From the NCBI GenBank assembly GCA_002753615.1, contig PEAO01000002.1, positions 30,261-94,260 on the forward strand: DNA of 64,000 nt, written 5' to 3'. This document shows, one piece after another, positions 3,001 to 28,828 of this stretch (position 1 is the stretch's first letter; every line of letters begins with the position of its first letter). The notes beneath the pieces were generated by a model. It searched no databases and was not told the origin of the DNA. It saw nothing but the letters and a program-made list of their open reading frames with translations. A program made the translations under genes and the position numbers. The stretch comes from Magnetococcales bacterium DCbin2 (GTDB taxonomy: Bacteria > Pseudomonadota > Magnetococcia > Magnetococcales > UBA8363).

Positions 3001-6000
3001 CGCCGTGACCGTCACACCAAAATTGGTCTCCAACATCGTACCGCCAACGCCATCGGTGGCGGTAAAGCTGAAACTATCGGCGGACGTTTCCGAGCCATCA
3101 TGGCGATAGAGCAATCGCCCCTGCTGCATCATCTCCTGAGTCCAGGTTTGCCCCGGAGACAAGATCGTGCCATCCCGCTCCAAACGCCCATGGACCGGGG
3201 CATTCACCAATGTCACAGTCACCTGCGAGGCCGATTGTTCGGGATCGCTCACCGGGAGCATGGCCGCAGTGATCACGAGGGTTCCCCCCTCCAAAACCGG
3301 ACCACTCGCCGGGGCTGCCATCATGGGGGCATCATTCTGCGGTGTCACGGTGATGGTCACGGTGCCAACGTCAATACGGGCATCCCCCGCATTGAGGGTA
3401 TAGGTCAGGGTATCGGTTCCAAAATAATTGGGGTCCGGGGTATAAACCAACTGGCCATTGCCCAAATGGACCACTTGACCATGGGCGGGATTGGAAAAGC
3501 CGATGACGTTCAGTGCCGGGTTCAGGCCATTGGGGAGAAAATCGGGATCCAGATCATTATCCAAAACCGAAAGGGTGACCGCCGTGTCTTCTCCTGTGCT
3601 GGCACTATCGTTGCCGGCGACAAGGCTGTCGGGGATTGGATTGACAACCACAGTCACCGTCCCCACATCGGTGTTGCCGTGGCCATCTCCTATCGTATAG
3701 GTGAAGGCATCGACCCCGTGATAATCGTTATTGGAAAGATAGCTTAGGGTTCCGTTGCCGTTGTTGACCAGCACACCCTGGGAAGGGTTGGTGAATGAGA
3801 CAAAAGTTAATAGATCCCCGTCCACATCCCCGTCGTTGGCCAGCAAATCCCCGGTGATGGTGATGATTTTGGTGACATCTTCCTGGGCCAAAATGGCGTC
3901 GGCGTTGGCCACAGGGGTATCCTGGACCGGATTGACAGTGATGGCCACCGCTGCGGCGGCAGATTTGGCCCCACCGCTGCCGGACCCTCCTAAATCATTG
4001 GCGACGATGGTGAAACTATCGGCACCAACATAATCGGCATCGGGTTCATAGAACATCCCATTGAGGGCATCGTTGATGGCAGCGAGGGATCCCGAAAAAA
4101 TCATGGTGGCACTGCCATCCGCCCCCAGCGAAAAATGTAAACCAACCGTGGTCCCCAAATCCACGATCCCATGGTTCACCCCCAGCGAAAGTTGGATATC
4201 CCCCGCCCCAAGATCGGCATCGGTCACGTTGATTCCGGCCAAAATCAACATCAAGTCCTCCCCCACAACCCTGGGACCGGAGACGGTCACCACGGGGGGA
4301 TCGTTGACGGCGACGACGCTCATGTTGGAGGAGACCACGGTGCTGGACAATGAACCATCGTGGACGCTGAAACCCACCTGACGCAAAGAGGACTGAGGCG
4401 TATCACCGTTATCATTGACATACCGGACCGAGCGGAGTGCCGTTTGATAATCGGCCACCGAAGCGGAACCCGACAAAGCCATGACCCCGGTAGCCCCATC
4501 CCAACTGCCTGAAATCCCCAACTGGTTGGTAAAAACCAAACGGTCCTCTGCCGCCACATAATTGCTGGAAATCACAACGGTTGCCCCTTGCAACGTCGTG
4601 GAATCGGCATCGCTGAGGGTCAGGTTGGGATCGATAAGGGTTGCGGCATCGTTTTCACTGTAGGTGAACGCGGTACCACCCGCCAACCCCGGACGGTCGT
4701 TGACCGCGACCACAGTGATCAACGATTGACTGGCAGGGCCGGTTCCCGAAGTATCGATCCCTTGCCAGGCCAGGGTACGCATCCCCGCCGTCGGGTTATC
4801 ACCCGCTGCATTGTTGTAGGTAACACTCGCCAAGGCGGTCTGATAATCGGCCATGGAAGCGACACCGCTCAACGTGAGAATTCCCGTTCCGGCATCCCAG
4901 GCACCCAGGATGCTGGCCGTATTGACAATACCCAGAACATCCTCCCCCGTACTGTAACCACCCACAATGGCCACCTGGGCACCGATGAGATGGGTTCCAT
5001 CGGGGTCGCTCACCGTCATGGAAGAAGAAGCCACCAGGGTGGCGTCACCCTCGGTAAACACCAACGCCCCCCCGGCAGTCACCACCAAAGGATCATTCAC
5101 TGGAGTGACCGTGATCACAAAGGGGGTTTCGCCAGAGCTTCCCCCCTGACTGTCGGAAACGGTAAACCGGAATTCATCCGTCAAGGTCTCCCCGCCATCA
5201 TGGAGATAATCAACCTTGGAAGCCGCCAAATCAGCCTGGGTAAACGTCTGCCCCACACTCAATGCCGTACCATTGAGACGTACCTGGCCGTGACTTCCCA
5301 CTGCTGTCAGGCTGTAAACAATGGCGTTATTGCCCGACTCGGCATCGGTCACCGCCAGAGCTGCGGACGTAATCACCCCACTCCCCCCCTCGGCCACCGT
5401 CAACCCGGTATTGACACTCAGTTGCGGGGCATCATTGACCGCCGCCACCGTAACCGCCACCGTTTGGTTCAACAAAAAGCCACCCACCCCATCCATGACC
5501 GTCAGGACAAAAGGGTCGCTGACCGATTCACCGCCATCGTGGGTATAAACAACCCGATGATTATCGATATCGTCCTGACTAAAGATTGCCCCAGCGGCCA
5601 GGGCGGTACCACTCAGGGAGAGAGTGCCGTGGGATGGGGGGGTAGCCAGGATGAATTGCACCTGGGTCGCGGATTGTTCCAAATCCTGGCCTAGAAGCAT
5701 CACGTTGGTGAGGACAACCGAGTCCCCCTCGTTAAGACTCAATCCGGTGTTGATAGGGAGTGTGGGGTCATCATTGAGTGCCGTCACGGTGAAAGTAATA
5801 TCCCCGGTGCCGGTGCGCAGATCCCCCGCACTCAGGGTGTAGGAGATGACCTCGATGCCCGTGAAATCGGCATCGGGGACATAATGAAACTGGCCACCCC
5901 CCAGATACGTGACCGTTCCAAAAGCTGCCGGCGTAAAACCAATGATCGAAAGAGCGGGATTGATCCCATCGGGGAGAAAATCGGGATCACGATCATTGGC

Positions 6001-9000
6001 CAACAGATTACCCGTAGTCACCGAACCATCCTCCAGCAGGCTCACAGCGTCGTCCACCGGGGACAAGGCATTTTCCACCGGGGCGACAGTCATACTGACG
6101 GTGGCGGTGGCACTATCGCCACGGGCGTTGACGATGGTATAGGTGAATGCATCCAAACCGTTGTAAAGGGCAACCGGTGCATACACCAATGTCGCCCCAA
6201 CCGGGGTTACCGTTCCGTGGGTCGGTTGGGTAAAACTTACAAAGGTCAGGACACCCCCATCGGGATCGGTATCGTTGATCATTAAATCATCGGCGATATC
6301 CAGCGTCACACTGGTACTCTCCGCCGTGACAAACCCATCCGCACCGACAATCGGATTATCATTCACCGGCTGCACGGTGATAGACACGTTGGCCACCGCC
6401 ACTTTGGCCCCACCCGCGCCAGAACCACCGCCGTCGCTAACCACCAGGACCAATGAATCAGCACCATTGAAATTGGCCTGTCCCCGATAGAGGATGTGGG
6501 CCAAGGCGGCATTCACATTGGCTGCTGTCCCAGAAACAGTCCATGTTGCCGTCCCATTGCCTCCGGCATCAAAGGTCAAACCCACCGTGGAGGATAACGT
6601 CAAGATTCCATGGGCAACCGTCGCCGTTACCGAGGCATTGCCGCCACCCAAATCGGCATCGGAAAAGCTAATGCCGGTGATGTCCGTATCCACATCCTCG
6701 TTGATGGACTGCGCACCGGGGAGACTCCAAACCGGGGCGTCATTGGCCGCCGTGATGGTAATCGGCAATGCGGTGGTCGCCAACGTCCCCCCCTGGGAAT
6801 CGTTGATATGAAAGCTGAAGCTGTCGGCCAGGGTTTCACTGCCATTGTGGCGATACACCAGATTGCCAGAATCCACATCGACCTGAGTAAACTGCCCCCC
6901 CAACCCCAAAGCGACACCGTTGAGCAGCACACTCCCCTGGGGGGGCAATACATCCAGAACATAGGTCAAATCAGCCGCCGTATCCTCAACATCGGTGGCT
7001 GCAAGGTTGCCATTGCCGATGGTCACATCCCCCCCTTCAGCAACAGTCACCCCATTTTTGACCAAAACCGGGTTGTCATTGGCCGGAATCACCGTCAGAT
7101 TAAAGTTGGTTTCCGTAAGCGAACCGCCCACCCCATCCGCCGCCGTAAAACTGAAATTATCGGCCAGAGTTTCCGACCCACCGTGGGTATACACCAAACG
7201 GTTTTGATTCATGTCATCCTGGGTCCAGGTCTGGCCAGCCACCAGGGCAACACCATTCAACGTCAAGCTGCCATAGTCCGGGGTATTCACCAACGTCAAA
7301 GTCACCTGGGCCGCCGCTTGTTCCACATCTGCTATCTGTAGAAAGACCGGGGTGATCGTCACCGACGCCCCTTCCACCACCGCCGCACCGGTATTGGTGG
7401 CAACCATGGGCATATCGTTGATGTTGTTAACAGTGAGATTTACCGTCCCCACATCGGTTCGGGCATCACCAACACTCAAGGTGTAGGTAAAAGAGTCGGC
7501 TCCCGCATAATCATCATCGGGGGTATAGATAAACTGACCATTCCCCTGGTAGGTCACCTGACCGTGGGCGGGATCGGTAAATCCGATGACCGCACGCGCC
7601 GGGTTCAAACCAAAAGGGAGGAAATCGGGATCACGATCATTGTCCAAAACCCAAAAACTGGTGGCAACCTCCTCATCGGTCGTCGCAGTGTCAGAGTTGG
7701 CTTGCAGGCTGTCGGGAATATCATTGACGACCATCGTGACGACAGACTGGCTGGTGTTACCATGACCATCGCTCACCGTGTAATTAAAAGAATCGTTGCC
7801 ATGATAATTGCTGCTGGAAAGATAGGTCAGGGTACCGTTGCCGTTATCCACCAAGGTGCCATAAGAAGGATTAGTAAAAGAAACCAGCGTGAACAAATCC
7901 CCATCCACGTCGGTATCGTTCGCCAACAGATCGGTGGCGATGGTGATGATCTTTGGAATATCTTCAAACGCGCTGATGGCATCGATGCTAGCGACCGGAG
8001 CATCCTGAACCGCCGTGACGGTGATCCCCAGAGAGGCCGCCGTTGATTGGGCACCACCGCTGCCGGAACCACCCAGATCATTGGCGACGATGGCCAGGGA
8101 TTCGGCACCAAAATAATCACCGTCGGGCTGATAGGTCATCCCGTTCAAGGCGTTGTTCACCTGGGCCACCGTCCCGGAAATCGTCATGGTGGAACTGCCG
8201 TTAGCCCCCGCAATAAAGCTCAAACCCGCCGTCGTTGCTAAATTGATGATGCCGTGGTTCACCGCCAGGGCCAGTTGAATGTTCCCCCCAGCGATATCGA
8301 CATCGGCCACAGAGATACCCGTCAAACTTAAACTTTGATCCTCATTGACTGTCCCTGGAGCCGGAAGGGTGATCACCGGGGGATCATTGACCGCCGACAC
8401 CGTGACATTAACCGACACCGCTACGCTGGCAAGACCACCATCATAGACGCTGAATTGAACCTGGCGGGTGGATGCCTGCGGAGCGGTAGTATTGTCGTTG
8501 ATATACCGCACCGAACGCAGTGCGTTGCGATAGTTGGTCAACGTCGCCGGACCCGAAAGGGTCAACACCCCGGTCGCCCCATCCCAACTGCCGGAAATCC
8601 CCGATTGATTGACAAAGACCAGCCGATCCTCGCCGACGACAAAATTATTGGCGATGGTCACGGTCGCACTTTGCATGGTGGTGTTGTCGGCATCGGCCAC
8701 CGTCACGGTCGCATCCATGACCGTCCCGGCATCGTTCTCCTGATAGTTGAGTGCAGCAGAGGCGGTCATCACCGGGCGATCATTGACCGCCTGCACGGTG
8801 ACGGTGGAGGGACTTGCCGGGCTGGTCCCAAGGGCCGAAGTTACCCTCCAGGCCAGAGTTCGCACCCCGGCGGTGGGATTATCGCCGCCAGCATTGTTGT
8901 AGGTGATGCTCCGCAATGCCGTGAGATAATTGGCCGTCGTCGTGGTGCCCGTCAAAGAGAGTACCCCGGTCCCAGCGTTCCATGTCCCGGTGATGGCCCC

Positions 9001-9190
9001 GGTATTGACAAAATTTAATACATCCTGACCTGCAACATACCCCGCCGTAATGGACACCTGGGCACCCGTCAGATTGGCACCATCTTCATTGGAGACCGTC
9101 AAACCCGCATCGGCGACGGTCGCCGCATTCCCTTCAACAAACGTCAACGCCCCCCCCGCCGTCACCGCCAGGGGGTCATAGACATTATAA
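1..9190 (-). repeat. ~4.08-kb higher-order repeat (about 1361 codons per unit) inside the giant gene, roughly 2.25 copies in the window
   Basis: 4494-4548 aligns to 8577-8631 (45/55 identical by eye, offset 4083). 4921-5080 aligns to 9004-9163. Antisense ORF peptides recur at the same offset (877-1221 vs ~4960-5300; 2368-2844 vs ~6450-6930). Similarity fades near 9190. Confidence 0.7.
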
Positions 9191-12100
9191 ACTGTAATGG
9201 CCACCGTCCCCGCAGCCGTCCCCCCGGTACTGTCGGTCACCCCGATAGCCAAACTGTCGGTGCCATTGAAATTCAAGCTCCCGCGATAGACCAACGCATT
9301 CGTCCCCGCCAGGGTGGCATTCAATTGTGCCAGAGTTCCCACCAGGGTGACCGCCCCAGTCCCATTGCCCGTCACACCCGCAGCCCCCACACCCCCGGCA
9401 ACAGCGGTATCCACTGTCACGGTGCCTTGGGTCACCGCAAGAGTCACTGTGGTATTGCCCGTGGCATCGATGTCGGTGAGTGACAGGCCCGGAATAGCAA
9501 TATTTTGCTCCTCAAGTCCCCAAACACCGTCGGCGGATGTATTCCAGGTTGCCCCGGTGATCGTGCCGTTCTTCGCACCAGCTTGGTCGTTGGCTACGGC
9601 CCCCACCCCCTCGTTCAAAGGCCAATACCCAACCAGACCCGCCTCGGAACCTGTCAGAGTCCGGCTCATGTTGGTCACAATGCTGGCGGACGATTGCGCG
9701 GTGTTCCAAATGCGCACATCGGCAAGACCACCCTTCATATCATTCAAAAGGTTGGACCTGGCTCCCAGGTAAAATCCGGTCTGTGCCTCGTGAACTCCGG
9801 GCTGGCTGACCTGTTTTTCCAACTGCCCGTTGACCATGACGCGGGTGTTGGTGCCATCGAAGGTAAACGCTAGGTGATACCATACCCCTGCGGTCCATGA
9901 AGTGGTGGTGGAGACTGCGGTATCGTAACTGGGACCGCCAATCTTGGTATAAATCCCGATTTCACCACCACCATTCTTGTTAAAACTGATGTGGGGGCGT
10001 CCGGTCGCACCATTACAAAAGAGCAGATCCTGGCGTGCGCTGGCACTGGTCAGGGTGACCGTCGGCTTCCACCACATCTCAATGGTGAATGCGGTCGTCG
10101 GAAAAACAAAGGTAGGGCTAGTAATCGTATCATTATTGCCATCAAAAACCAGTTGATCTCCCGTATCGATCACCACCTGCGGCGCGTCAATCACCTCGGT
10201 AACCGTCAAAGTCGCCGTATCGGTATTGGTGCTGAAAGCGGTGGCACCACCATAACTGGAAACATCGACTTTGTTTCCCGTCGTACCGCTCGTCTGATCC
10301 CAAGCCCGATAGGTCAAACCCACCGATTCTCCGTGCAATCCATCCGGGATATAGCGAATTTGATCGGTATCGCGCAACAACAGGGCGGAAGTTCCCGATA
10401 CCGCCCCCACCGCCGTCCAACCACTACCCGTATCATACTGCCAAGTTCCATAACCGCTGTTCAACGCAGTGATGGCAATCCCCTCCGAAGGGGTAGGCGA
10501 GGTATCGACATCGGTGACCCCAGCCCCGGCGAAAGAGGCGATGGTTTGCCCCGCGTTGGCGGTAGCATCTTCATCGATGGCCGTCAACACTGGAGCCGCT
10601 GCGGTGAGTGTCGGGGCGTCCTGGACCGGTTCCATGGTGATGGAAACCGTTGCCGCACTGGAGTCCAGAGCGGTGCTGTCGGTCACGGTAAAATTCCAGG
10701 TGGCGGTACCATCAAAATCGGCGGCTGGAACAAAAACGACCCGCCTTAACGCATCGCTTGCTGTCGTAATCTGGGCACCCACGGTCAACGGAGTGGTCAA
10801 ATCGCTGGGTACATATAATGTTCCCTCCGTAACGGCATCCGGTATAGAGGTCAGGGTCGCCTGGGTAATCGTATCACCATCCGCATCCGATCCCCCCAAT
10901 GAAACCGTAACACCCGCACTCCCTTCCGTAGGGTAGGTAATCCATTGTGGTTCCCCGGAAGGCGACAAGCTGCCGTTGATGCCATTTTTCGTATCGGTCG
11001 CCACGGTGTCGGCAGAATCGGTAACGCCATCGTCCAACGCATAATAACCGGTCAATCCCGCTTCAGCCCCAGTCAAGGATGTCGTCGTCATATCGGAACG
11101 CGCCCAAGAGAGTGCCGTCGCAGCCGTCGTACTCAAACCGGTGTTCCACAACCGTACCTCGGCAATGGAACCAGGAAAGGTAAAATTTCCCGTATCGGCA
11201 AAGGAACCGATGGAGACTAGGTTGTTGATCGTCGTCGTACTGGTAAAACTGATCCCCCCGGAAAAACTTTCAATATTTTGACCATCCAGGAAAATATCCC
11301 CGACTGGATTATTCCCAACCGTCCTCCAGGTCAAGACGGCGTGATGCCATTGCCCCGATCGGACCACAGCGATGGAGGTCGCATTGAACCCATCCATGCC
11401 ACCAAACAAGTTCCATGTCGGACCTGCGGCATCATTATTTCCGGTGGACTCAACATGCAGGTGAATCAGCTCACTGCCTGCAACCAAACTGCTGGTATTG
11501 GAAAGGATGAATCCATATTTTCCCACAGTCGTGGCATAGCTTTCGTTGATTTTGAACCATAGAGAAATGGTCCCTTCCGTTGGGTTCAGGGGATATTTGG
11601 CCTGGGTTTTATCATCCAGATTGACCCAATCGTTGACACCATCCAGCGTCAGACCATGGTCATTGACCCCTGGAACGGCGATGGGTGCTTCAAGGAGGTC
11701 GTAAAATGAGGAGAAGATCGTCGCATCAAAAGGGCTAGACACGTTCACATCCCCCTGGCGAACTTCCAAATTCCAGTCCCCACCCAAGGTGGCCGCACCC
11801 GTGGCATCGGAAGAGACCGCCACATCGGCACCCGTCAGATGGGACAACGCCTGGACAAAGGCTTCCCCCCGTGATCCGGCCCCCACGTCGCAACCGTAAA
11901 TCAGGATATCCCCATCCTGGGCCAAGGCCGAACCCCAGGTGGCCAAAACCTCCGATTGCCCCTCCAGAGTATCCAGAGTCAACCGTGAGCTACCCAGCAA
12001 AATTTCACCGGCACGCCCGTGGGAGACGATATGGAGGCTCTCAAGTTGCGTTCGCCCGGCCAACAGTTCGGTGATCTGGGCCACCCCATCGCGCTCTGGG

Positions 12101-12426
12101 TCCAGCAGCACCACCTCAGTCCCCTTGGCGACGGCAGCGAGCAACTGTTCCCAACCCGCCACACCGGTATCGATGACCATCAAAGAACCGCCAGAGACGG
12201 CAAGTTGATCCAAGACCGGCGACCAATCTCTATCGGCCCCGTCACCCTGGGCATCCGTATTGGCCACCGTATGGGGAGTGAGATCATCCAGCAGATCCTT
12301 GGTCGTCGCCACCAAGGCACCGTCAAACAGCACCCGTGGTTCCAAAGCCAGCATCATGGCATCCGAAACCACCACGCTGCCCAGAAGAGAGGATAACCGT
12401 TGCCCAGATTGGAGTGTTCGTTTCAT
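1..12426 (-). CDS. Giant repetitive adhesin-like surface protein, N-terminal 4142 codons (3' end lies beyond the left edge of the window)
   Basis: Not in the ORF track because it has no stop in the window. Reverse-complement translation from ATG 12426-12424 (AGGA 6 nt upstream) gives MKRTLQSGQRLSSLLGS. A DUF4347-like module follows (LMVIDTGVAGWEQLL, LHIVSHGRAGEILLG, ILIYGCDVGAG). Two LamG/concanavalin-like modules follow (rc of ~9700-10215 reads WYHLAFTFDGTNTRVMVNG...GGLADVRIWN). Many ~95-100 aa cadherin/Ig-like repeats follow (rc of 1-138 = LYIPNPNYNGRDQFTYTLNAGDRRIDVATVQVTVRPVNDQP). The phase is the same at 138, 10215 and 12426. The + strand ORFs here look like Gly/Arg/Ile-rich antisense shadows. 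Confidence 0.85.
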   Translation of the reverse strand, partial: MKRTLQSGQRLSSLLGSVVVSDAMMLALEPRVLFDGALVATTKDLLDDLTPHTVANTDAQGDGADRDWSPVLDQLAVSGGSLMVIDTGVAGWEQLLAAVAKGTEVVLLDPERDGVAQITELLAGRTQLESLHIVSHGRAGEILLGSSRLTLDTLEGQSEVLATWGSALAQDGDILIYGCDVGAGSRGEAFVQALSHLTGADVAVSSDATGAATLGGDWNLEVRQGDVNVSSPFDATIFSSFYDLLEAPIAVPGVNDHGLTLDGVNDWVNLDDKTQAKYPLNPTEGTISLWFKINESYATTVGKYGFILSNTSSLVAGSELIHLHVESTGNNDAAGPTWNLFGGMDGFNATSIAVVRSGQWHHAVLTWRTVGNNPVGDIFLDGQNIESFSGGISFTSTTTINNLVSIGSFADTGNFTFPGSIAEVRLWNTGLSTTAATALSWARSDMTTTSLTGAEAGLTGYYALDDGVTDSADTVATDTKNGINGSLSPSGEPQWITYPTEGSAGVTVSLGGSDADGDTITQATLTSIPDAVTEGTLYVPSDLTTPLTVGAQITTASDALRRVVFVPAADFDGTATWNFTVTDSTALDSSAATVSITMEPVQDAPTLTAAAPVLTAIDEDATANAGQTIASFAGAGVTDVDTSPTPSEGIAITALNSGYGTWQYDTGSGWTAVGAVSGTSALLLRDTDQIRYIPDGLHGESVGLTYRAWDQTSGTTGNKVDVSSYGGATAFSTNTDTATLTVTEVIDAPQVVIDTGDQLVFDGNNDTITSPTFVFPTTAFTIEMWWKPTVTLTSASARQDLLFCNGATGRPHISFNKNGGGEIGIYTKIGGPSYDTAVSTTTSWTAGVWYHLAFTFDGTNTRVMVNGQLEKQVSQPGVHEAQTGFYLGARSNLLNDMKGGLADVRIWNTAQSSASIVTNMSRTLTGSEAGLVGYWPLNEGVGAVANDQAGAKNGTITGATWNTSADGVWGLEEQNIAIPGLSLTDIDATGNTTVTLAVTQGTVTVDTAVAGGVGAAGVTGNGTGAVTLVGTLAQLNATLAGTNALVYRGSLNFNGTDSLAIGVTDSTGGTAAGTVAITVYNVYDPLAVTAGGALTFVEGNAATVADAGLTVSNEDGANLTGAQVSITAGYVAGQDVLNFVNTGAITGTWNAGTGVLSLTGTTTTANYLTALRSITYNNAGGDNPTAGVRTLAWRVTSALGTSPASPSTVTVQAVNDRPVMTASAALNYQENDAGTVMDATVTVADADNTTMQSATVTIANNFVVGEDRLVFVNQSGISGSWDGATGVLTLSGPATLTNYRNALRSVRYINDNTTAPQASTRQVQFSVYDGGLASVAVSVNVTVSAVNDPPVITLPAPGTVNEDQSLSLTGISVADVDIAGGNIQLALAVNHGIINLATTAGLSFIAGANGSSTMTISGTVAQVNNALNGMTYQPDGDYFGAESLAIVANDLGGSGSGGAQSTAASLGITVTAVQDAPVASIDAISAFEDIPKIITIATDLLANDTDVDGDLFTLVSFTNPSYGTLVDNGNGTLTYLSSSNYHGNDSFNYTVSDGHGNTSQSVVTMVVNDIPDSLQANSDTATTDEEVATSFWVLDNDRDPDFLPFGLNPARAVIGFTDPAHGQVTYQGNGQFIYTPDDDYAGADSFTYTLSVGDARTDVGTVNLTVNNINDMPMVATNTGAAVVEGASVTITPVFLQIADVEQAAAQVTLTLVNTPDYGSLTLNGVALVAGQTWTQDDMNQNRLVYTHGGSETLADNFSFTAADGVGGSLTETNFNLTVIPANDNPVLVKNGVTVAEGGDVTIGNGNLAATDVEDTAADLTYVLDVLPPQGSVLLNGVALGLGGQFTQVDVDSGNLVYRHNGSETLADSFSFHINDSQGGTLATTALPITITAANDAPVWSLPGAQSINEDVDTDITGISFSDADLGGGNASVTATVAHGILTLSSTVGLTFDAGGNGTATWTVSGTAANVNAALAHILYRGQANFNGADSLVLVVSDGGGSGAGGAKVAVANVSITVQPVNDNPIVGADGFVTAESTSVTLDIADDLMINDTDPDGGVLTFVSFTQPTHGTVTPVGATLVYAPVALYNGLDAFTYTIVNARGDSATATVSMTVAPVENALSPVDDAVSLLEDGSVTTGNLLANDRDPDFLPDGINPALSIIGFTPAAFGTVTYLGGGQFHYVPDADFTGIEVISYTLSAGDLRTGTGDITFTVTALNDDPTLPINTGLSLNEGDSVVLTNVMLLGQDLEQSATQVQFILATPPSHGTLSLSGTALAAGAIFSQDDIDNHRVVYTHDGGESVSDPFVLTVMDGVGGFLLNQTVAVTVAAVNDAPQLSVNTGLTVAEGGSGVITSAALAVTDAESGNNAIVYSLTAVGSHGQVRLNGTALSVGQTFTQADLAASKVDYLHDGGETLTDEFRFTVSDSQGGSSGETPFVITVTPVNDPLVVTAGGALVFTEGDATLVASSSMTVSDPDGTHLIGAQVAIVGGYSTGEDVLGIVNTASILGAWDAGTGILTLSGVASMADYQTALASVTYNNAAGDNPTAGMRTLAWQGIDTSGTGPASQSLITVVAVNDRPGLAGGTAFTYSENDAATLIDPNLTLSDADSTTLQGATVVISSNYVAAEDRLVFTNQLGISGSWDGATGVMALSGSASVADYQTALRSVRYVNDNGDTPQSSLRQVGFSVHDGSLSSTVVSSNMSVVAVNDPPVVTVSGPRVVGEDLMLILAGINVTDADLGAGDIQLSLGVNHGIVDLGTTVGLHFSLGADGSATMIFSGSLAAINDALNGMFYEPDADYVGADSFTIVANDLGGSGSGGAKSAAAAVAITVNPVQDTPVANADAILAQEDVTKIITITGDLLANDGDVDGDLLTFVSFTNPSQGVLVNNGNGTLSYLSNNDYHGVDAFTYTIGDGHGNTDVGTVTVVVNPIPDSLVAGNDSASTGEDTAVTLSVLDNDLDPDFLPNGLNPALNVIGFSNPAHGQVVHLGNGQLVYTPDPNYFGTDTLTYTLNAGDARIDVGTVTITVTPQNDAPMMAAPASGPVLEGGTLVITAAMLPVSDPEQSASQVTVTLVNAPVHGRLERDGTILSPGQTWTQEMMQQGRLLYRHDGSETSADSFSFTATDGVGGTMLETNFGVTVTAVNDNPVLTQGAVSVIEGGQGVIDGTILLATDTEGGAASLGYVLDALPVHGYLSFHGMTLGLGGGVFTQADVNAGGLVYVHDGSETTGDSFSFHVTDPQGGATPVTVQGITVIPGNDAPVWSLPGGWSGNEDQNLDITGVQISDSDLGVGVIHVSLSVSHGTVTLPVTTALTSSAGANGSGSWTFSGSIASVNAALNHIVYRGNANFNGSDQLVLVADDGGLSGVGGAKVAIGSVGITVQATADNPNAGLDAFSTAEDIALTLDIASDILANDFDPDGLSFSLESVTQSAHGTVTVSGSNLIYTPAAHYNGLDSFTYTIINSNGGRASSTVSVVVNPLADQLRPGDDQVTVVEDGMVVTDNLLANDRDPDYLPDGRNPALSIIGFSAAAHGSLTWNGDGRFTYVPEADFDGYDHFSYTLSAGDQRMDTVWVVVTVTAANDNPSLVTNTGLDLEEGGQVTLTSAMLKALDLEQGPSQIQFIVASVPTHGVLTLHGVSLSRGSLFSQDDIDNHRVVYSHGGDESTNDSFLVSITDDAGGYLLSQPIFIRVTPVNDAPRLLTNAGLTVAEGGRAALSTAGLSVTDAESHSGEIFYDVSTIPVHGQLRLNGVALDSGQRFSQADLMAGRVEYFHDGSDTVTDGFTFTVSDGQGGRLAQTPFTITITPVNEPPVLTSPGWFTVLEDESTPLRGIWVSDSDIGSGMILVRLSVEHGRLSVPELDGLQFQNGRNHTASMTLVGPVDIVNRALMGLHYQGVWDYNGYDRLALLISDQGNDGTVSAATTGKTVVLEVTPVEDPPLPGMDAIMSPPDHPFVADEPVVIDVGPSLLANDYDGDATGLTISGFTQPQFGSLVDQGNGRFVYTPNANFKGYDQFTYTVTDRTGKYAFTTVVIINPVMDGLDAGDDTLVAHEDEPGQTINLLRNDRDPDFKGGTNPKLTIIAFTQGAHGRVVYVGNQSFLYIPNPNYNGRDQFTYTLNAGDRRIDVATVQVTVRPVNDQPNIAVN

Positions 12427-12625
12427 GGTCGTCCTAATCGGTGAAAAGGTTTTCGTCCATGAAGCCAACCGGCTCCTAAGCCACGAAAAACAGACGCGCC
12501 ATAAAAACCTGTACGCAACAAGCGTACCTTATATTTTATTATTTAATATCAGTATATTATCATGAATCAGTCAGAAATTTTTCCAACTGAATGTGCGGAG
12601 ATGTAAAAAATTATTGACATGTTCG

Positions 12626-12683
12626 CGGTCACATGGCGGGGATGGTGGTGACAAACGCCGGTTGGCTCTCACGGGAGCGATAG
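12626..12683. repeat. 58-bp direct repeat, left copy (orphan copy of the 3' end of the SPOR gene)
   Basis: cggtcacatggcggggatggtggtgaCaaacgccggttggctctcacgggagcgatag matches 13441-13498 at 57/58 positions (C/T difference at 12652 vs 13467). The copies are spaced 815 bp apart. Confidence 0.9.
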
Positions 12684-12694
12684 AAAACTTCGTC

Positions 12695-12722
12695 TTGACA
12701 TAGGACTTATCAGTCCTATAAT
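12695..12722 (+). promoter_or_regulatory. Sigma70-like promoter with embedded palindromic operator upstream of the toxin-antitoxin cassette
   Basis: TTGACA is at 12695-12700 and TATAAT at 12717-12722, with a 16-nt spacer. The spacer is filled by the perfect palindrome TAGGACT-tatc-AGTCCTA (12701-12718), as expected for antitoxin autoregulation. Confidence 0.6.
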
Positions 12723-12730
12723 GATTTTCC

Positions 12731-13097
12731 ATGGAGATTGTATTCTATCGCGAAAAAGATGGCTCATTTCCAGTTCAAGATTTCCTTGATGGGCTTGAAA
12801 ATCAGGGGGCAGCGCGTATCATGCAGTATCTTACCCATCTTGCCGATTCTGGTGGAAGGGCAACAGGTTCAGCCTATTAAGAAACTCCACGGATACCCCC
12901 TGGAAGAGATCAGAGTCAAACAGCCTCGCACTCTCCATCGTGTGATTATCCACGTTCAATTGAGAGATAAAATCTTGGTTCTGCATGGATTCACAAAAGT
13001 TGAGGGACAAGAAACGCCAAAAAAAGAGCTTGAGCAAGCCCTTGCACGCTATCAAGCGATGACTGCCACCCATGGTGAATCGAAACGTCATGAATGA
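12731..13097 (+). pseudogene. Gp49/HigB-like (RelE/ParE superfamily) toxin, disrupted by a 1-nt frameshift
   Basis: ATG 12731 gives MEIVFYREKDGSFPVQDFLDGLENQGAARIMQYLTHLADSGG, then runs into TAA at 12878-12880. The family-like sequence continues in the next frame (track ORF 12738..13097): VQPIKKLHGYPLEEIRVKQPRTLHRVIIHVQLRDKILVLHGFTKVEGQETPKKELEQALARYQ. Removing one G from GGG 12858-12860 restores a single ORF. Confidence 0.75.
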
Positions 13098-13413
13098 TCC
13101 ATTTGATGGTCTCAATCCCGATCATTGTCAGGATGGAAACACTTACCTTCAAGAACGCTTGAAAGATCCACAATTCAAGATTGCCTATGAAGTTGAGGGG
13201 ATAAGGATTCAGATTGCCGAAAAAATCCTTGAAAGACGGAGGATGTTACACCTTACCCAGAAACAGCTTGCCGACCGTGCCATGACCGGGCAAAAAGTGA
13301 TTTCAAGGATTGAAAGAGCGGAGATTTCTGTAGGCGTTGATTTGCTCCAAAGGGTGGTGAAAGCTTTGGGTGGGGAAATTTCTGTCGATATGAATTTCGC
13401 TCATCCCGCTTAG
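13090..13413 (+). CDS. XRE-family HTH antitoxin (HigA-like)
   Basis: Contains LHLTQKQLADRAMTGQKVISRIERAEISVGVDLLQRVVKALGGEISV, a typical XRE HTH. ATG 13090 overlaps the toxin stop (ATGAATGA). An alternative in-frame ATG lies at 13072. Confidence 0.8.
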   Translation: MNDPFDGLNPDHCQDGNTYLQERLKDPQFKIAYEVEGIRIQIAEKILERRRMLHLTQKQLADRAMTGQKVISRIERAEISVGVDLLQRVVKALGGEISVDMNFAHPA

Positions 13414-13440
13414 TTTTCCATGCTTGGGGTTACACCGCAA

Positions 13441-13498
13441 CGGTCACATGGCGGGGATGGTGGTGATAAACGCCGGTTGGCTCTCACGGGAGCGATAG
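13441..13498. repeat. 58-bp direct repeat, right copy (the true 3' end of the SPOR gene)
   Basis: Covers the last 17 codons plus the stop of the 13444..15039 gene (...YRSRESQPAFITTIPAM*). See the left copy at 12626-12683. Confidence 0.9.
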
Positions 13499-15039
13499 TT
13501 GTCCCGCAAACGGCGGGCTTTGGAAAAGCCCTGGAAACGGCCAATCCAGACCATGCGCCACACACGCCCTTTACCGTCCGCCTGTGAAACAATCTGGGGT
13601 CCATATCCCTTGACACGCAACTGATCCACCAAAGCCTGTGCCCGATTTTCATCGGAGAAACTGCCGACCTGAACCGCATACCGCCACGATTGCGGCACCG
13701 TTGCTGGAGCCACGGCTTCCCTCTGAGGGGCCGCCACCTCCAATACGACGCCATCCGCTTTGGGCAAGGGGGCGTTGTCCAACATCCGAATGGAAGAATA
13801 AGCATCCACTGGAGTGACAAAAACCGCCATTCCCTCCTTATCCCGAAAGGCTTTCGCCTCCCCACGGGCTTGACTCAAGTTCCAATAGCGGCCAATCCAA
13901 ACAGAATGCCACACACGATCCGCCGCATCCTTGGATTCCTGGACCGTGGCATCATACCCTTGTCTACGCAGTGTCGCCGCCAAATCCCACCCCTTGGCCG
14001 GAATCAAAAAGCTCCCGACCTGCACCGCATACCGAAACAACACCTTCCGCCCGGTCTGCAACGAGACATGGACCGGCAAAGACTCCTTGATCAAAAACCC
14101 CTTGGCCTGTTCGCGGGCTTCCAAATAACGATCATACAACCCGATCCAAACCCGCCAAGCCAGCACGTCGGTATGCCCCTCAGGAATTCCAGGAATCTCG
14201 GAAATTTCCGGTTCGTATCCACGCTTGCGCAGTTCCTGAACCATTTCCAAGGCATTTTCAATTTTGGCAAAAACCCCCACCTGCAACACATAGCGTTCAT
14301 TTTTGCCATCGACCCCTGGCATCTCAGCCCCCTGAGGTGCCGTTCCAGAGATGGCAAGATCCTCCCTGGCCACCCCATCCCGTTTTTTGGGAAGGGCCTC
14401 AGGAGCGGCATTTGGTTCCACTTCCCATGTTGCTTCCAGGGGGATTTCCTCGTGGACAACCACCGTCACCGGGGCAGGATACTGCAACGCCGGAAGATAA
14501 AATCCATCCCTGCCCAGTACCGGAAAAACAACGGCCCGCCCCGGCAACCCCATTTTTTCGCCAAAGCGGCGCAAAGCCAGATCAACCACCTCCGCCCCCT
14601 GCTCCCCTTCGGTCCAGGGAATACCAAACATCCAAAAAGGAAATCGATCTCCCACCCCGATGACCTCCAAGGTGAAGAATCCCTTGGGCGGGGGCTGATA
14701 ACGGCCCGTCAACAACCATTGCACCCCCAAAGCACGCAACTGCTGCGCCGTCGTTTCGTGAAACAACTGCGTCTCATCCAATATCGTCTGCCCTTTCCAG
14801 GACGCAGCATGATTCATCGGCACAAAGCGGCGAAAATAATTCAGGGTATCGTCGTGTACCGTCATGGCGGGATCTTGGGGACCCCTCAGTGGCAATACCG
14901 CCAAGGTGCCACGGCTAATCCCAACCTTGGGTGGCGGTTCCGAATCAAACCATGCCAACCGTTCCAGAACCGGCTTCAGCGAACAAGCCGCCAGGGAGAA
15001 AGCCACGACGAAGATCAAAAAAATACGGATACCGTTCAT
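13444..15039 (-). CDS. Lipoprotein with three C-terminal SPOR (peptidoglycan-binding) domains
   Basis: Three SPOR-like units are present (RYVLQVGVFAKIENALEMVQELRKRGY..., RYAVQVGSFLIPAKGWDLAATLRRQGY..., RYAVQVGSFSDENRAQALVDQLRVKGY...WIGRF). The likely start MNGIRIFLIFVVAFSLAAC carries a lipobox (LAAC). ATG 15039 overlaps the upstream stop as ATGA. Confidence 0.85.
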   Translation of the reverse strand: MNGIRIFLIFVVAFSLAACSLKPVLERLAWFDSEPPPKVGISRGTLAVLPLRGPQDPAMTVHDDTLNYFRRFVPMNHAASWKGQTILDETQLFHETTAQQLRALGVQWLLTGRYQPPPKGFFTLEVIGVGDRFPFWMFGIPWTEGEQGAEVVDLALRRFGEKMGLPGRAVVFPVLGRDGFYLPALQYPAPVTVVVHEEIPLEATWEVEPNAAPEALPKKRDGVAREDLAISGTAPQGAEMPGVDGKNERYVLQVGVFAKIENALEMVQELRKRGYEPEISEIPGIPEGHTDVLAWRVWIGLYDRYLEAREQAKGFLIKESLPVHVSLQTGRKVLFRYAVQVGSFLIPAKGWDLAATLRRQGYDATVQESKDAADRVWHSVWIGRYWNLSQARGEAKAFRDKEGMAVFVTPVDAYSSIRMLDNAPLPKADGVVLEVAAPQREAVAPATVPQSWRYAVQVGSFSDENRAQALVDQLRVKGYGPQIVSQADGKGRVWRMVWIGRFQGFSKARRLRDNYRSRESQPAFITTIPAM

Positions 15040-15878
15040 GTGGATAAAAACCGTTTGGTTTCCCCTTCCAAGACGAGACACGTCAGCTTGGTCGAATAAT
15101 AGGCACCCGTATCGATTCCAATACGATTAGGCAGTGTCACAGGTCGTTCGGTCACCGTATGACCGTGAACAATCACACGGCCATGATACTGGTACGAATT
15201 TAAAAATGGTTCCCGAATCCACAGGAAATCCACAGGATTCTGTCGCTTTAAAGGGACACCCGGTCGCACCCCGGCATGGACAAAAAAATAATCACCCACT
15301 TCATGGCAATGACGCAATCCAGAAAAAAAATTTTCATGTCCCGCAGGGATAGCCTGCAACAGTCCATCCCGCAAATCGATCATTTTTTCCTCGGCTGAAA
15401 CACGATTGGCCACCCGAACACGATAACTGGCAATGGTTGCCAATCCCCCATGCGCCAACCAACCGTGATCTGGCTGGGGGCGAGCCAGGAAGGAGGCCAT
15501 TTCCGCTTCATGGTTGCCCTGGATAAAGATCGATTCAAAACCGGCCAGGGGATGAAGCAACAAAAAATCGATCACCTCCCGGCTCTGATCACCGCGATCA
15601 ATATAGTCGCCCAACAGTATCAAGATTTTACGTTCCCCAGGCAACAGGGTGCGACTATCAGCATCGATGAGTTCAAATATTTTTTTCAATAGGTCAAGGC
15701 GTCCATGAATATCGCCCACGGCGTATACACGGCACCCTTCGGGGATTTTAGCTGGAGACTCTGGACCTTGAACCGTGGTCAGGTCTAAAGCGACGGGGTT
15801 TCTCCCAGAGAACTTGGAAAAGAGACGTTTGAATAATTCCGACAACACCGTTTCCCCTGGGAGGTGGGTCGTTTGCAA
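15036..15878 (-). CDS. PPP-family metallophosphoesterase (PrpA/ApaH-like Ser/Thr phosphatase)
   Basis: Motifs VGDIHG, LLGDYIDRGDQS and QGNHE are present. The only available start is non-ATG (TTG at 15878). The gene is translationally coupled to the SPOR gene. Confidence 0.85.
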   Translation of the reverse strand: MQTTHLPGETVLSELFKRLFSKFSGRNPVALDLTTVQGPESPAKIPEGCRVYAVGDIHGRLDLLKKIFELIDADSRTLLPGERKILILLGDYIDRGDQSREVIDFLLLHPLAGFESIFIQGNHEAEMASFLARPQPDHGWLAHGGLATIASYRVRVANRVSAEEKMIDLRDGLLQAIPAGHENFFSGLRHCHEVGDYFFVHAGVRPGVPLKRQNPVDFLWIREPFLNSYQYHGRVIVHGHTVTERPVTLPNRIGIDTGAYYSTKLTCLVLEGETKRFLST

Positions 15879-16052
15879 AAGAGGCAGATTTTACCCCTCG
15901 GTAGGATTTTTTTTCCCGCTTTGGTCGCCGACACACTCATTTTTTCGTGTACCACCAATCGATTAAATGATGGCACATAATCTGCTTTCCCTATAGCCAA
16001 CGGCTATCCCAATCACCTCAAGAAAAGCGATTTTATTTCCCAGGAGACTATC

Positions 16053-16391
16053 ATGTTGCACAGCCAACCTGCAAACATCGACACCGCCCTGCACATACTC
16101 GGGAAAGGTCCAGCACACCCCGCTTTTGACGATGCCTGGGAATATCTTGCCATGTCCAAAGATCCCCACATCCAGTATGCCATGCGTTTAGCGGTGGAAG
16201 AGACCTTTGGCCCCTATCCGCAACCCCTAGGCTATGCCGAAAACCAGGAGCCATTCTGGGATATTGATGAGATGTCGCGTTACCTAGGGGTCAGCAAGGA
16301 TGAATTACTCGAAAATGCGCAAGAAATCGAGGAGAAATGGGGTTCCAAGACCGCCATGCGGGATAGTTCGGAGCTGCATTTATTGCACTGA
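16053..16391 (+). CDS. Hypothetical protein (112 aa)
   Basis: ATG with an AGGAG 7 nt upstream. The composition is acidic and protein-like. No family recognised. Confidence 0.55.
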   Translation: MLHSQPANIDTALHILGKGPAHPAFDDAWEYLAMSKDPHIQYAMRLAVEETFGPYPQPLGYAENQEPFWDIDEMSRYLGVSKDELLENAQEIEEKWGSKTAMRDSSELHLLH

Positions 16392-16407
16392 CTTAAAGCC
16401 ACGCGAA

Positions 16408-16435
16408 CGATACCGGGGACCGCCACCCGGTATCG
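16408..16435 (+). terminator. Stem-loop after the 16053..16391 gene
   Basis: CGATACCGGG (16408-16417) pairs with CCCGGTATCG (16426-16435) around an 8-nt loop. No clear T-run follows, so function is uncertain. Confidence 0.35.
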
Positions 16436-16592
16436 GAAATTCCATCCCCTCCCCCGCCTCTCCCGCCATCCCCTGAGGGTCCATCGGACCAAACCTGTCT
16501 TTTCCACCACTGGCATACCGTGTGCTTAGGGATTCATCCGTTGATCACCCAGCGTCAAACATCAATCGCTCTCAACTCTATTCCGGGTACTC

Positions 16593-16817
16593 ATGCGAAA
16601 TTATGCCGATCTTTTCATCCTCCAGCAGGAACTCAAACAACCTCCCCCTGGGCGTACCAATAATCCCATGGATTTAAAATGGTTGGCCTTGGATCGTTTT
16701 GTTGCCTTGTATCAGGCCCCGTCTATGGTCAACGACGCCTGGACCATTCCCCTGTGGAGCGGCGTGGCGGTCGATCGTGGACTGGTGGAAAATATCGAGG
16801 GTGAGGGCAATGGCTGA
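16593..16817 (+). CDS. Hypothetical protein (74 aa)
   Basis: An ORF only, with a weak RBS. No family recognised. Confidence 0.35.
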   Translation: MRNYADLFILQQELKQPPPGRTNNPMDLKWLALDRFVALYQAPSMVNDAWTIPLWSGVAVDRGLVENIEGEGNG

Positions 16818-16943
16818 GACTTTGAATGATTTTTCTTACCAAACCCAAGGGACGAAAGTCGCGTCGTTGTCTTCATCAACGACAGAGTACTCGGTCTACC
16901 CAACAATATAGAATCAATTTTTCAACTTGGGTGCAGTATAAAT

Positions 16944-16977
16944 AAAAAACGGCCACCAAAACGGTGGCCGTTTTTTA
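16944..16977. terminator. Bidirectional intrinsic terminator
   Basis: AAAAAA-CGGCCACC-aaaac-GGTGGCCG-TTTTTT. The 8-bp GC stem is flanked by an A-run and a T-run. It lies immediately 3' of the tRNA fragment on the minus strand. Confidence 0.8.
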
Positions 16978-16984
16978 TTTTATT

Positions 16985-17034
16985 TGGTAGGCCGTCACAG
17001 GATCGAACTGTGGACAAGCTGATTAAGAGTCAGT
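16985..17034 (-). tRNA. 3' fragment of tRNA-Lys(CUU), from the anticodon stem to CCA; putative attL core
   Basis: The minus strand reads ctgaCTCTTAAtcag (anticodon loop, CUU) - cttgtc - CACAG-TTCGATC-CTGTG (T arm) - ACGGCCT-A-CCA. No matching 5' acceptor strand (AGGCCGT) or D arm lies to the right, so the gene is incomplete here. Confidence 0.75.
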
Positions 17035-17173
17035 TGTTCTTTAAAAATCCCTCCTTGATCTTCTTCAAATTTTTCTGCGTCAGACGTTATTTGTTCCATG
17101 TAAATAATTAAGATATAACTGAAAATCAGTATCATGTTGCACCATGTTGTCTCGTCTGGTATCATCCAAAAAT

Positions 17174-17224
17174 CACACCCAAAACCACACCCAGGAGATA
17201 TTTTTCACACCCTAAATCACACCC
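17174..17224 (+). promoter_or_regulatory. Four direct CACACCC repeats (candidate integrase arm-type sites)
   Basis: CACACCC occurs at 17174, 17186, 17206 and 17218 (spacings 12/20/12), between the att core and int. An inverted repeat CCCACT...AGTGGG follows at 17222-17247. Confidence 0.5.
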
Positions 17225-17292
17225 CACTGGGATATGATAGAGTGGGTGAGAGCAACTGGTTTCAAAACGTGAACAAATGATTCGGAGAAAAA

Positions 17293-18501
17293 ATGCTCTT
17301 TACCGACAGGTATCTGAAAAGCCTAAAACCAAAAGAAAAACGCTACGAAGTATTAGAGAGCCTTGGTTTCGGCGTCCGAGTCACACCCCATGGGGGTGTG
17401 ACCTTCATCTACGTATATCAATTTGAGGGCCGTAATCGACGAATGACACTCGGAACATATCCAAGCCTAACCCTGTCTGAGGCCAGAAAGAAACATGCAG
17501 AGGCCAGAGAACTTTTTTTGAAAGGTATTGACCCCGGCGCGATTACGCAAACCGCAAAAGAAGAACGCAAGGCATCTCCAACCGTCGCCGAATTGGCAGA
17601 GGAATACATGGAGAAATGGGCCAAAGCGCGGAAAAAATCATGGAAAGAAGATGAACGGATGTTAAATCACGACGTTATTTCTGCCTGGGGCAGACGCAAA
17701 GCCAAGGACATTACAAGAAGGGACGTTATAATTCTTCTTGACCAGATTGTTGAGAGAGGTTCCCCAATAGCCGCAAATCGCACTCTATGTGTCGTCCGCA
17801 AGATGTTTAACTTCGCCCTGTCGAGGGACATCATACAGACCACCCCTTGTGCAGCCATAGCGAGGCCAGCAGAAGAAAACCGGAGAGATCGGATATTTAC
17901 CACAGACGAGACGAGGATTTTTTGGGATCGGCTTGAAATTGTACGTATGGATATTGGAAGCAAACTCGCGTTAAAACTCCAACTCTTTACGGCTCAACGA
18001 TGCGGGGAAGTGAGTGGTGCCCCCTGGACCGAGTTCGACTTGGTGGAAGGATGGTGGACGATTCCCTCAGAACGGGCAAAAAATAAAATGCCACACCGGG
18101 TGCCATTGTCCAAAATGACCAAGGACTTGCTGGCCGAAATCAAAAAAACTTCTGGTGGTGATTCTCCTTGGTTGTTTCCATCCCCACGAGGAGGAAAGCC
18201 TGTCGGCGAAACTGCCCTGGCGCATGCAGTCAAAAAAAATCTGTCGGTGTTCGGTATTCCACCATTCACGCCCCACGACCTACGGCGCACCGCTGCCAGC
18301 CACATGACATCAATGGGAATACCACGCCTAGTGGTTGCCAAAATTCTTAATCATGCCGAAAGCGGAGTAACAGCAGTCTATGATCGACACAGTTACGACC
18401 AAGAAAAACGGCGAGCCATGGACGCTTGGTCAAAACGGTTACATGAAATCGTGAATGGTAGTACCGAAGAGAATGTGGTGGCGTTCGCGGTTAAATCCTA
18501 A
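17293..18501 (+). CDS. int: Tyrosine integrase (P4-like, DUF4102 arm-binding N-terminus)
   Basis: The N-terminus LKSLKPKEKRYEVLESLGFGVRVTPHGGVTFIYVY is DUF4102-like. Catalytic-region motifs are TAQRCGEV, HDLRRTAASHM and LNHAESGVTAVYDRH. Confidence 0.95.
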   Translation: MLFTDRYLKSLKPKEKRYEVLESLGFGVRVTPHGGVTFIYVYQFEGRNRRMTLGTYPSLTLSEARKKHAEARELFLKGIDPGAITQTAKEERKASPTVAELAEEYMEKWAKARKKSWKEDERMLNHDVISAWGRRKAKDITRRDVIILLDQIVERGSPIAANRTLCVVRKMFNFALSRDIIQTTPCAAIARPAEENRRDRIFTTDETRIFWDRLEIVRMDIGSKLALKLQLFTAQRCGEVSGAPWTEFDLVEGWWTIPSERAKNKMPHRVPLSKMTKDLLAEIKKTSGGDSPWLFPSPRGGKPVGETALAHAVKKNLSVFGIPPFTPHDLRRTAASHMTSMGIPRLVVAKILNHAESGVTAVYDRHSYDQEKRRAMDAWSKRLHEIVNGSTEENVVAFAVKS

Positions 18502-18806
18502 TTCAGCCAGCCGAACCCCTTCACCATCGCGCCGAAAACACAGACAAACCCAAAGATCAGGGAAAAGAGCAGAATGCGAAAATCGGTTCGAGTATTATCG
18601 CGAACATCACGGAATTCGGTTCGGGCATTATCGCGAACATCGCTACGAATCTCCTTCATCTCGCCATGAATGTTGTCCATGTGCTTCTCAATATACCCCA
18701 TACCAGCTTCCAGATTTTGCAATACGTGGTTCCATACCGTCTCCACCGCCGCCATCCTGGCCGGAAAAATCTCCGGCCGCATGAGGTAGCACGACTGTAT
18801 TATCAT
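18498..18806 (-). CDS. Small coiled-coil, C-terminally membrane-anchored protein (DUF1640-like architecture)
   Basis: Contains an internal repeat SDVRDNARTEFRDVRDNTRTDFR followed by the TM segment ILLFSLIFGFVCVFGAMV. The start is uncertain (in-frame ATGs at 18806, 18782 and 18755). Confidence 0.5.
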   Translation of the reverse strand: MIIQSCYLMRPEIFPARMAAVETVWNHVLQNLEAGMGYIEKHMDNIHGEMKEIRSDVRDNARTEFRDVRDNTRTDFRILLFSLIFGFVCVFGAMVKGFGWLN

Positions 18807-28797: not shown

Positions 28798-28828
28798 CAG
28801 GTTCCAAGTTCTCAAAAGATGAGTTGCG

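Follow-up and report, generated by a model that had tools for sequence, protein, structure and literature searches.

A HigBA-type toxin-antitoxin cassette between two copies of a SPOR gene end in Magnetococcales: a probable integration at a gene's 3' end

Elements that integrate into a gene's 3' end, and bring a substitute for the end that they displace, are a well-known form of integrating DNA. Prophages e14 and 21 in icd of Escherichia coli, the P4-type islands that target tRNA genes, and ICESt1/3 in fda all follow this plan. Decayed forms are described as well: cis-mobilizable elements (CIMEs) derive from integrative and conjugative elements (ICEs) or integrative and mobilizable elements (IMEs) and keep attL and attR after losing the genes for integration and transfer (PMC5704250). 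What defines them is kinship with a known ICE or IME that shares their att site, together with mobilisation by accretion (PMC5704250). Another kind of small acquired unit is the chromosomal type II toxin-antitoxin (TA) islet; according to a review, ccdO157 and other TA loci of E. coli were acquired horizontally and decay in place (PMC7167474). The locus considered here resembles each of these systems in part. It lies in a 64,000-nucleotide stretch of DNA from Magnetococcales bacterium DCbin2 (GCA_002753615.1, contig PEAO01000002.1, positions 30,261 to 94,260 of the forward strand), which is called the window throughout, and consists of a TA cassette placed between two copies of the 3' end of a gene for a SPOR-domain lipoprotein. 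The host is an uncultivated magnetotactic coccus, and the SPOR lipoprotein binds the cell wall. An integrated cassette, with an integrase-type origin favoured, is the account that we hold to be probable.

The inserted cassette occupies 12684-13440 (757 bp, plus strand) and holds a promoter, an operator, a toxin gene and an antitoxin gene. It is bracketed by a 58-nt direct repeat (12626-12683 and 13441-13498), whose copies are identical at 57 of 58 positions; an earlier, sequence-only reading of this DNA had given the same count, which is confirmed. The copy at 13441-13498 (minus strand) is the functional one and comprises the last 17 codons plus one nucleotide of the SPOR gene, the stop codon and 3 nt beyond. 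The target gene runs from 15039 to 13444 on the minus strand and encodes 531 amino acids with a lipobox (LAAC) and three SPOR domains (Pfam SPOR, E 5e-24). Its stop codon lies at 13444-13446, so this copy is the genuine gene end, as that reading had it. The copy at 12626-12683, also on the minus strand, is a displaced, att-like version of this gene end that has kept its junction with the ancestral downstream flank. It had been called an orphan and is one: a TAA nine codons upstream closes the SPOR frame, no start codon lies between, and there is no credible open reading frame (ORF). At up to 3 mismatches the 58-mer occurs twice in the window, where shuffles expect none (100 shuffles), and short-word BLAST with each copy and its 40-nt flanks found no third copy there. 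A search of IMG/VR returned none either; the 58-mer is therefore not the dispersed repeat that the sequence-only reading had envisaged as a contrary outcome.

The identity block of the two 58-mers ends 3 nt past the SPOR stop codon, which is expected if an element must restore the gene end. As in the 3'-end-integrating elements, the gene end occurs as two direct copies, the gene is intact, the displaced copy stands on the old downstream flank, the block of identity stops at the gene end, and the empty site has one copy. Unlike them, the cassette is just 757 bp long and has no integrase, excisionase, replication or transfer function, and no autonomous relative was found at the SPOR site.

Evidence for an insertion comes from related loci, which were collected by searches with the SPOR protein and the antitoxin and are all metagenome-assembled genomes (MAGs) or metagenome contigs. 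The window itself matches an 80-kb contig of the Magnetococcales MAG GCA_015234035.1 (L001) and a JGI metagenome contig (L002), each with one mismatch. The cassette is present in Magnetococcales nWRX3bin6 (L003), whose SPOR gene is 91.6% identical to the window in nucleotides, and in Logan SRR22388047 (L012; 89.6%); in both, the cassette and the pair of 58-mers around it are those of the window, and the boundaries are identical. The site is empty in Magnetococcus sp. THC-1_WYH (L015), whose SPOR gene is 91.7% identical in nucleotides to the window and 99.2% to L003, as it is in Logan SRR25935587 (L014; SPOR 69% identical to the window in amino acids) and in Magnetococcales C5_bin.1 (L005, the same as L013; 58%). 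L015 contains exactly one 58-mer, followed directly by CGAACATGTAAATAATTTTTTACATC..., which is the orphan's flank in the window and in L003; the empty, attB-like junction has the layout SPOR-58-mer-CGAACATG... An empty site with one 58-mer joined to the orphan's flank thus exists in a relative, where the sequence-only reading had suggested looking for it. Together with the empty sites of L014 and L005, it supports the proposal of that reading that a cassette-like element was inserted at the 58-mer; the circle itself we infer. The opposite pattern, with both copies in all relatives and unrelated content between them, is not what was found, as L003 and L012 carry the same cassette and L015, L014 and L005 are empty. 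A metagenome scan with the SPOR alignment added only a duplicate of L005.

The flanks indicate which copy is in the ancestral position. The region at 12427-12625 is the ancestral downstream sequence of SPOR and also the upstream region of a giant DUF4347/cadherin adhesin gene, which follows SPOR in all compared loci; the cassette now separates this region from SPOR. In the empty sites L015, L014 and L005 its counterpart by alignment begins immediately past the SPOR stop codon, including a TGTAAA..TTTACA palindrome and a GTACGCTTGTTGCGTAC hairpin. Since the orphan's flank is the post-stop sequence of the empty sites, being orthologous to it in L014 and L005 also, the orphan stands in the ancestral position, and the functional end together with the cassette was placed upstream of it. 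Collapse of two copies during assembly is an unlikely explanation of the empty site in L015, because collapse needs identical copies and the longest exact match between the L003 copies is 30 nt. The same interval holds another gene in two further relatives, Magnetococcales DCbin4 (L004; SPOR 56% identical to the window in amino acids) and Magnetococcales GCA_015228815.1 (L022; 52%). There a B12-binding radical-SAM gene (L004 11784-13361, L022 7625-9202) separates SPOR from the adhesin gene; L005, L014 and the clade of the window lack this gene, and neither a repeat nor an integrase was found beside it in L004 or L022. The presence or absence of the radical-SAM gene, taken with that of the cassette, means that the content of the SPOR-adhesin interval changed more than once.

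The base differences between the two copies, with positions of the 58-mer numbered in coding orientation, locate the exchange. The copies in L003 differ at positions 31, 43 and 57, and the single copy in L015 equals the L003 orphan at all three (G31, T43, C57), so that the crossover fell within positions 1-30. On this comparison, either a carrier gave rise to L015 when its repeats recombined with each other, or a chromosome like that of L015 gave rise to L003 through a Campbell-type or double-crossover gain. A target-site duplication would instead need three changes in the L003 functional copy, two of them exact reversions, which argues against it; the view of the sequence-only reading that the repeat is not a transposase-type duplication is borne out by these polymorphisms. 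G31 changes a Phe to Leu in L015, whereas Phe is invariant in the five other aligned orthologues. In L015 (9548-9605) the SPOR C-terminus reads ..QPALVTTIPAM, with this Leu, and the same base change is found in the non-coding orphan of L003; a substitution born in the orphan copy may have reached the gene again when the copies recombined. At position 32 every one of the three orphans has G, whereas two of three functional copies and the nearest outgroup have A; either the copies were unlike when the cassette inserted, or a change in the orphan preceded the split of the lineages. Position 10, which is four-fold degenerate, is C in both copies of the window, G in both copies of L003 (and G in L015) and T in both copies of L012, the outgroups having C. 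The chance of such matching parallel changes is estimated at about 1e-3, given three and seven changes in two orphans, and the co-variation thus points to exchange of sequence between the copies. The L012 orphan has drifted to 51/58.

Synonymous divergence (dS) gives the age of the insertion. Among the window, L003 and L012, dS of the two cassette genes is 0.11-0.20, and the neighbouring genes have values of 0.21-0.22 (SPOR), 0.14-0.21 (metallophosphoesterase), 0.09-0.13 (orf112) and 0.04-0.27 (orf74). As the cassette matches its neighbours, its age is roughly that of the divergence of the three lineages, for which a single insertion in their ancestor is enough; these values fit vertical inheritance of the cassette since one old insertion. 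The difference in cassette presence between L003 and L015 is recent, because dS between them on the SPOR side is only 0.00-0.03.

Homologues with about 70% amino-acid identity and the same promoter and operator occur in unrelated contexts, and DNA homology with them sets in at the edge of the cassette, 5-10 nt ahead of the -35 box. The GC content of the cassette is 44.9%, against 54% for SPOR and the next gene. These comparisons indicate that the cassette is horizontally acquired; that it was gained or lost at this site follows from the exact empty site of L015. On known plasmids or phages, the TA genes have only relatives below 41% identity, and none were found in IMG/VR viral contigs. The closest homologues outside the Magnetococcales (L010 and L006; about 70% amino-acid identity) stand in arrays of single genes or TA pairs. 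The array repeats are palindromic, about 30 nt long (GTTTCGCTTTTgtaaAAAGCGAAAC) and spaced by about 940-990 bp (L010 5478-5507, 6457-6486 and 7397-7426; L006 6426-6469 and 7419-7462). The arrays look cassette-like, and by eye the repeats are without integron attC core motifs.

The cassette itself is tightly built, with 11 nt ahead of the -35 box and 27 nt past the antitoxin stop codon. It has one promoter and two ORFs only; no integrase or transfer genes were found in its 757 bp. The sigma-70-type promoter (TTGACA-16-TATAAT, 12695-12722, plus strand) reaches a consensus score of 12/12, is invariant in the window, L003 and L012, and is conserved in the 70%-identical homologues L010 and L006. 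Its spacer contains an 8-4-8 palindrome, ATAGGACT-tatc-AGTCCTAT (12700-12719), which is conserved in L003 and L012 and has an imperfect counterpart in L010 and L006. The promoter and the palindromic motif agree with what the sequence-only reading had described, and the palindrome (ATAGGACTtatcAGTCCTAT) is probably the operator of the antitoxin. Autorepression by the antitoxin is the expected mechanism for such TA operons, according to the review cited above (PMC7167474), and by analogy the antitoxin of the cassette would be expected to repress its own operon at the predicted operator.

The toxin gene (12731-13097, plus strand) belongs to the HigB/Gp49 family (Pfam Gp49 PF05973, E 7.6e-9, above the gathering score) and is a pseudogene. 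Its first frame starts at 12731 and ends after 49 codons at a TAA (12878-12880), and the Gp49 match lies in another frame, at 12738-13097. DNA alignment with four homologues reveals a +1 frameshift, one extra T at 12877/12878, in the window only; with this T taken out, the product is a 121-aa protein collinear with the intact toxins of L003 and L012, each of which has an intact 121-aa ORF. The frameshift is also found in L001 and L002, two other assemblies of the same organism. The HigA-like XRE/HTH antitoxin gene (13090-13413, plus strand) is intact, encodes 107 aa (Pfam HTH_3, 1e-9) and shares its first 8 nt with the end of the toxin ORF; its exact product is recorded in L001 and L002. The self-contained TA unit of the sequence-only reading thus holds as regards its Gp49 and HTH_3 families and its 757 bp, whereas the frameshifted toxin means that the unit is no longer a complete TA system. 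In the window organism the locus is a decaying remnant in which the gene of the predicted autorepressor/antitoxin is left.

By family, the cassette is a HigBA-type type II TA module, with toxin activity in the intact copies presumed from that kinship. It resembles the solved HigBA of Streptococcus pneumoniae (6af3) in that the toxin gene comes first, the ORFs overlap, Gp49 and HTH_3 are matched and the promoter has a palindrome. It differs in that the toxin of the window is a pseudogene and the similarity is weak: HigB (6af3_A) is the closest solved relative of the toxin at E 4e-5, and the antitoxin matches HigA (6af3_B) at E 9e-4. The TA operon is convergent with SPOR, with 30 nt between the two stop codons and no terminator detected between them; mutual read-through of the TA operon and SPOR is possible, as a speculation. 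An Rfam scan of 12400-17300 gave just sub-threshold matches on a terminator.

With this content, the cassette can be set beside the two other described classes. It resembles a CIME by layout, since it lacks recombination genes and an addiction module is a plausible survivor of decay. However, neither a relation to an ICE or IME nor accretion was found for it, it consists of a single operon, and it comes from Magnetococcales, not from a streptococcus; with no parent element or cognate recombinase found, the resemblance does not establish membership of the class. Like the TA islets, it is a stand-alone operon with predicted autoregulation, lies between conserved genes, is variably present in close relatives and has a mutated toxin in some lineages. 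Unlike them, it preserves its junctions and an exact empty site. No TA islets with long direct repeats copying the end of a neighbouring gene were found in the literature searched, including the available sections of PMC7167474.

In the account considered probable here, a horizontally acquired 757-bp operon of HigBA type would have integrated once at the SPOR 3' end, before a small clade of Magnetococcales diversified from its ancestor. The reaction would have been of Campbell type: DNA carrying the cassette and the last 58 nt of the SPOR region would have recombined with the chromosomal 58-mer, leaving SPOR with a complete 3' end and the other copy orphaned on the old downstream flank. The two 58-mers would then be attL/attR-like hybrids and not a target-site duplication. 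A circle that bears the cassette and one 58-mer yields the observed topology when it recombines at the chromosomal 58-mer, and from this we infer a circular donor and a recombining enzyme; the expected circular, attP-like junction would read ..GCTTGGGGTTACACCGCAA-58-mer-AAAACTTCGTCTTGACA.. The original event would most likely have been site-specific, with an integrase that acted in trans or came from a larger element of which only the addiction module now remains, as in a CIME. Vertical inheritance, exchange of sequence between the repeats and a recent clean loss or re-gain in one species-level lineage would have followed. The trimming of the cassette to 11 and 27 nt outside its functional parts speaks for a site-specific origin, as does a parallel of the same topology in the same window, the tRNA-Lys/P4-integrase locus described below.

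Several observations weigh against this account. No integrase or larger element was found at the SPOR 3' end in L004, L005, L014, L015 or L022, a very thin sample, and all carriers trace to one event, so that there is no recurrence to show site specificity. The 58-mer has no significant internal symmetry or fold (fold z about -0.3, no better than shuffles as single-stranded DNA) and, as stated, is not found in IMG/VR. Moreover, gene-end repeats flank none of the other members of the TA subfamily (L006, L010, L016 and L019), and the genomes compared are without exception MAGs or metagenome contigs, the empty site of L015 included. Additionally, divergence between L003 and L015 rises from 0.8% to about 7% from about 45 nt beyond the orphan into the adhesin gene. 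This jump means that homologous exchange is evidently frequent beside the site, and it could itself have carried the cassette in or out; RecA-dependent recombination could likewise explain the recent gain or loss and the exchange of sequence between the copies.

Taken to its full extent, the last point becomes a history of homologous recombination only, in which the duplication arose and the cassette spread or was lost via RecA with no dedicated recombinase. The route would be a single crossover of a circular fragment that held the SPOR end and the TA operon, or double crossovers during allelic exchange of the adhesin gene. We consider such a history a serious though unlikely alternative. It draws on the sharp breakpoint about 45 nt from the orphan in L003 versus L015 and on the hypervariability of the adhesin gene, whose N-terminal dS is 0.69 between the window and L003 and 0.20 between L003 and L015, their other genes having at most 0.03. 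The joint change of position 10 in both copies fits gene conversion, an integrase is associated with the site in none of the genomes examined, and the 58-mer is without recombinase-like symmetry. What a RecA-only history leaves unexplained is a donor with exactly the last 52 coding nt, the stop codon and 3 nt beside a tightly trimmed TA operon; a block that stops where the gene stops is the mark of elements under selection to rebuild their target gene, and 58 bp is a poor substrate for RecA. The opposite extreme is an active minimal mobile cassette, in which the TA unit and one 58-mer would form an 815-bp circle that a chromosomal or island-borne recombinase mobilises in trans and that repeatedly enters and leaves the SPOR 3' end. 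The presence and absence of the cassette within a lineage 99.2% identical in SPOR, the exact empty site, the confinement of the crossover to positions 1-30, the identity of positions 1-10 between the copies in every lineage and the very compact unit would all suit such a circle. However, the cassette is as diverged as its neighbours, so that its distribution among the sampled lineages calls for no recent transfer, the L012 orphan has decayed to 51/58, and the toxin of the window is a pseudogene. A second insertion site, a circular contig or a viral copy was not found in searches of the window and IMG/VR. The circle has little positive support and is improbable.

The remaining explanations concern the nature of the 58-mer. 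A true long target-site duplication, made by a transposase-like or casposase-like enzyme or by end-joining through a break with 58-nt staggered ends and fill-in, would account for direct repeats of host sequence immediately flanking the insert and for the lineage-specific base at position 10 in both copies. Yet it meets the three sites at which the L003 functional copy differs from an L015-type host, two of them needing exact reversion, and position 32, which suggests that the copies were unlike from the start. No transposase is present, and there are no terminal inverted repeats, the longest match being 6 nt, a length reached in 200 of 1000 shuffles. To our knowledge, even the longest target duplications described are several times shorter than 58 nt, and this explanation is very improbable. 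TA operons with their own promoters are common as integron cassettes, and 58 nt is within the size range of attC, so the 58-mer might be taken for an attC site, the more so as the homologues in L006 and L010 stand in arrays with palindromic repeats about 950 bp apart. However, the 58-mer is the native, conserved coding end of SPOR in relatives that lack the cassette; it folds into no hairpin (the z of about -0.3 given above) and by eye has no R''/R' core motifs, and the only integrase of the window is P4-like, has an Arm-DNA-binding domain and adjoins a tRNA fragment. Because the 58-mer is orthologous to SPOR gene ends, the integron explanation is effectively refuted. A diversity-generating retroelement was rejected too: a reverse transcriptase is found neither between the repeats nor beside them, and the mismatches (G/A, T/G, C/T and others) are not adenine-specific.

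Other features of the window can be described more briefly. The adhesin gene occupies 1-12426 on the minus strand, with its start at 12426, and its product has 4516 aa in the gene call of L001; the gene runs from 12618 in L003 and from 9805 in L015. On the other side of SPOR, a bidirectional terminator (16944-16978) is followed by the 3' part of a tRNA-Lys(CUU) (16985-17035, minus strand), in which the anticodon arm, T arm, acceptor and CCA are recognised by eye and for which ARAGORN makes no tRNA call. Next come a P4-type integrase gene (17293-18501), a CI/S24-like repressor gene and an AlpA-like gene, and genes of an island extend from the integrase to about 23200 and beyond. A 95-bp block at 16944-17038 is 96% conserved in L003 and L015, and the DNA beyond it differs; in these two relatives it includes an inovirus-type Phage_CRI replication gene and a BrnT/BrnA pair. 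From its sequence, the region of the tRNA-Lys fragment has the look of a hot spot for integration at which a tRNA end was displaced. The window contains no intact tRNA, and the other end of the island was not found in it. A link between the cassette and this neighbouring integrase is unlikely, as the integrase has its own att site at the tRNA fragment and the 58-mer has no similarity to that region.

Further repeats occur farther along the window. A 34-nt direct repeat (24324-24357 and 28773-28806, 94% identical, 4.4 kb apart) lies in prophage-like DNA and contains a hairpin CGCCATT..AATGGCG; it may be a regulatory or terminator element. It was considered as a second gene-end duplication and rejected, being a hairpin repeat inside prophage DNA with no credible gene end. 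A 33-bp tandem repeat (23644-23882) falls in a coiled-coil ORF (23586-24119, minus strand), where it gives the product motif RDMKEMETGLK. Additionally, a 45-nt tandem pair is found at 32179-32268, and a 33-nt tandem pair at 18577-18641, just past the integrase gene.

The integration described here is of a familiar kind; what is unusual is its minimal size, its content of a single operon and the preservation of both junctions and of the exact empty site. The movement of stand-alone chromosomal TA operons is poorly documented, since in most cases their junctions have been lost. At this locus the two junctions persist, a relative with 99% identity in the target gene provides the exact empty site, and the lineages display stages of decay, from the intact locus through an eroded orphan repeat to a frameshifted toxin. 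The locus thus offers a rare clean snapshot of what would be Campbell-type acquisition, exchange between repeats and loss. If an 815-bp circle were active, which is improbable, no type of site-specific integrative element would be smaller, and its TA module would serve both as sole cargo and as stabiliser. Should a trans-acting recombinase prove responsible, TA operons could count among the cargo of minimal att-flanked cassettes outside integrons; otherwise, the locus would be an ordinary genomic islet.

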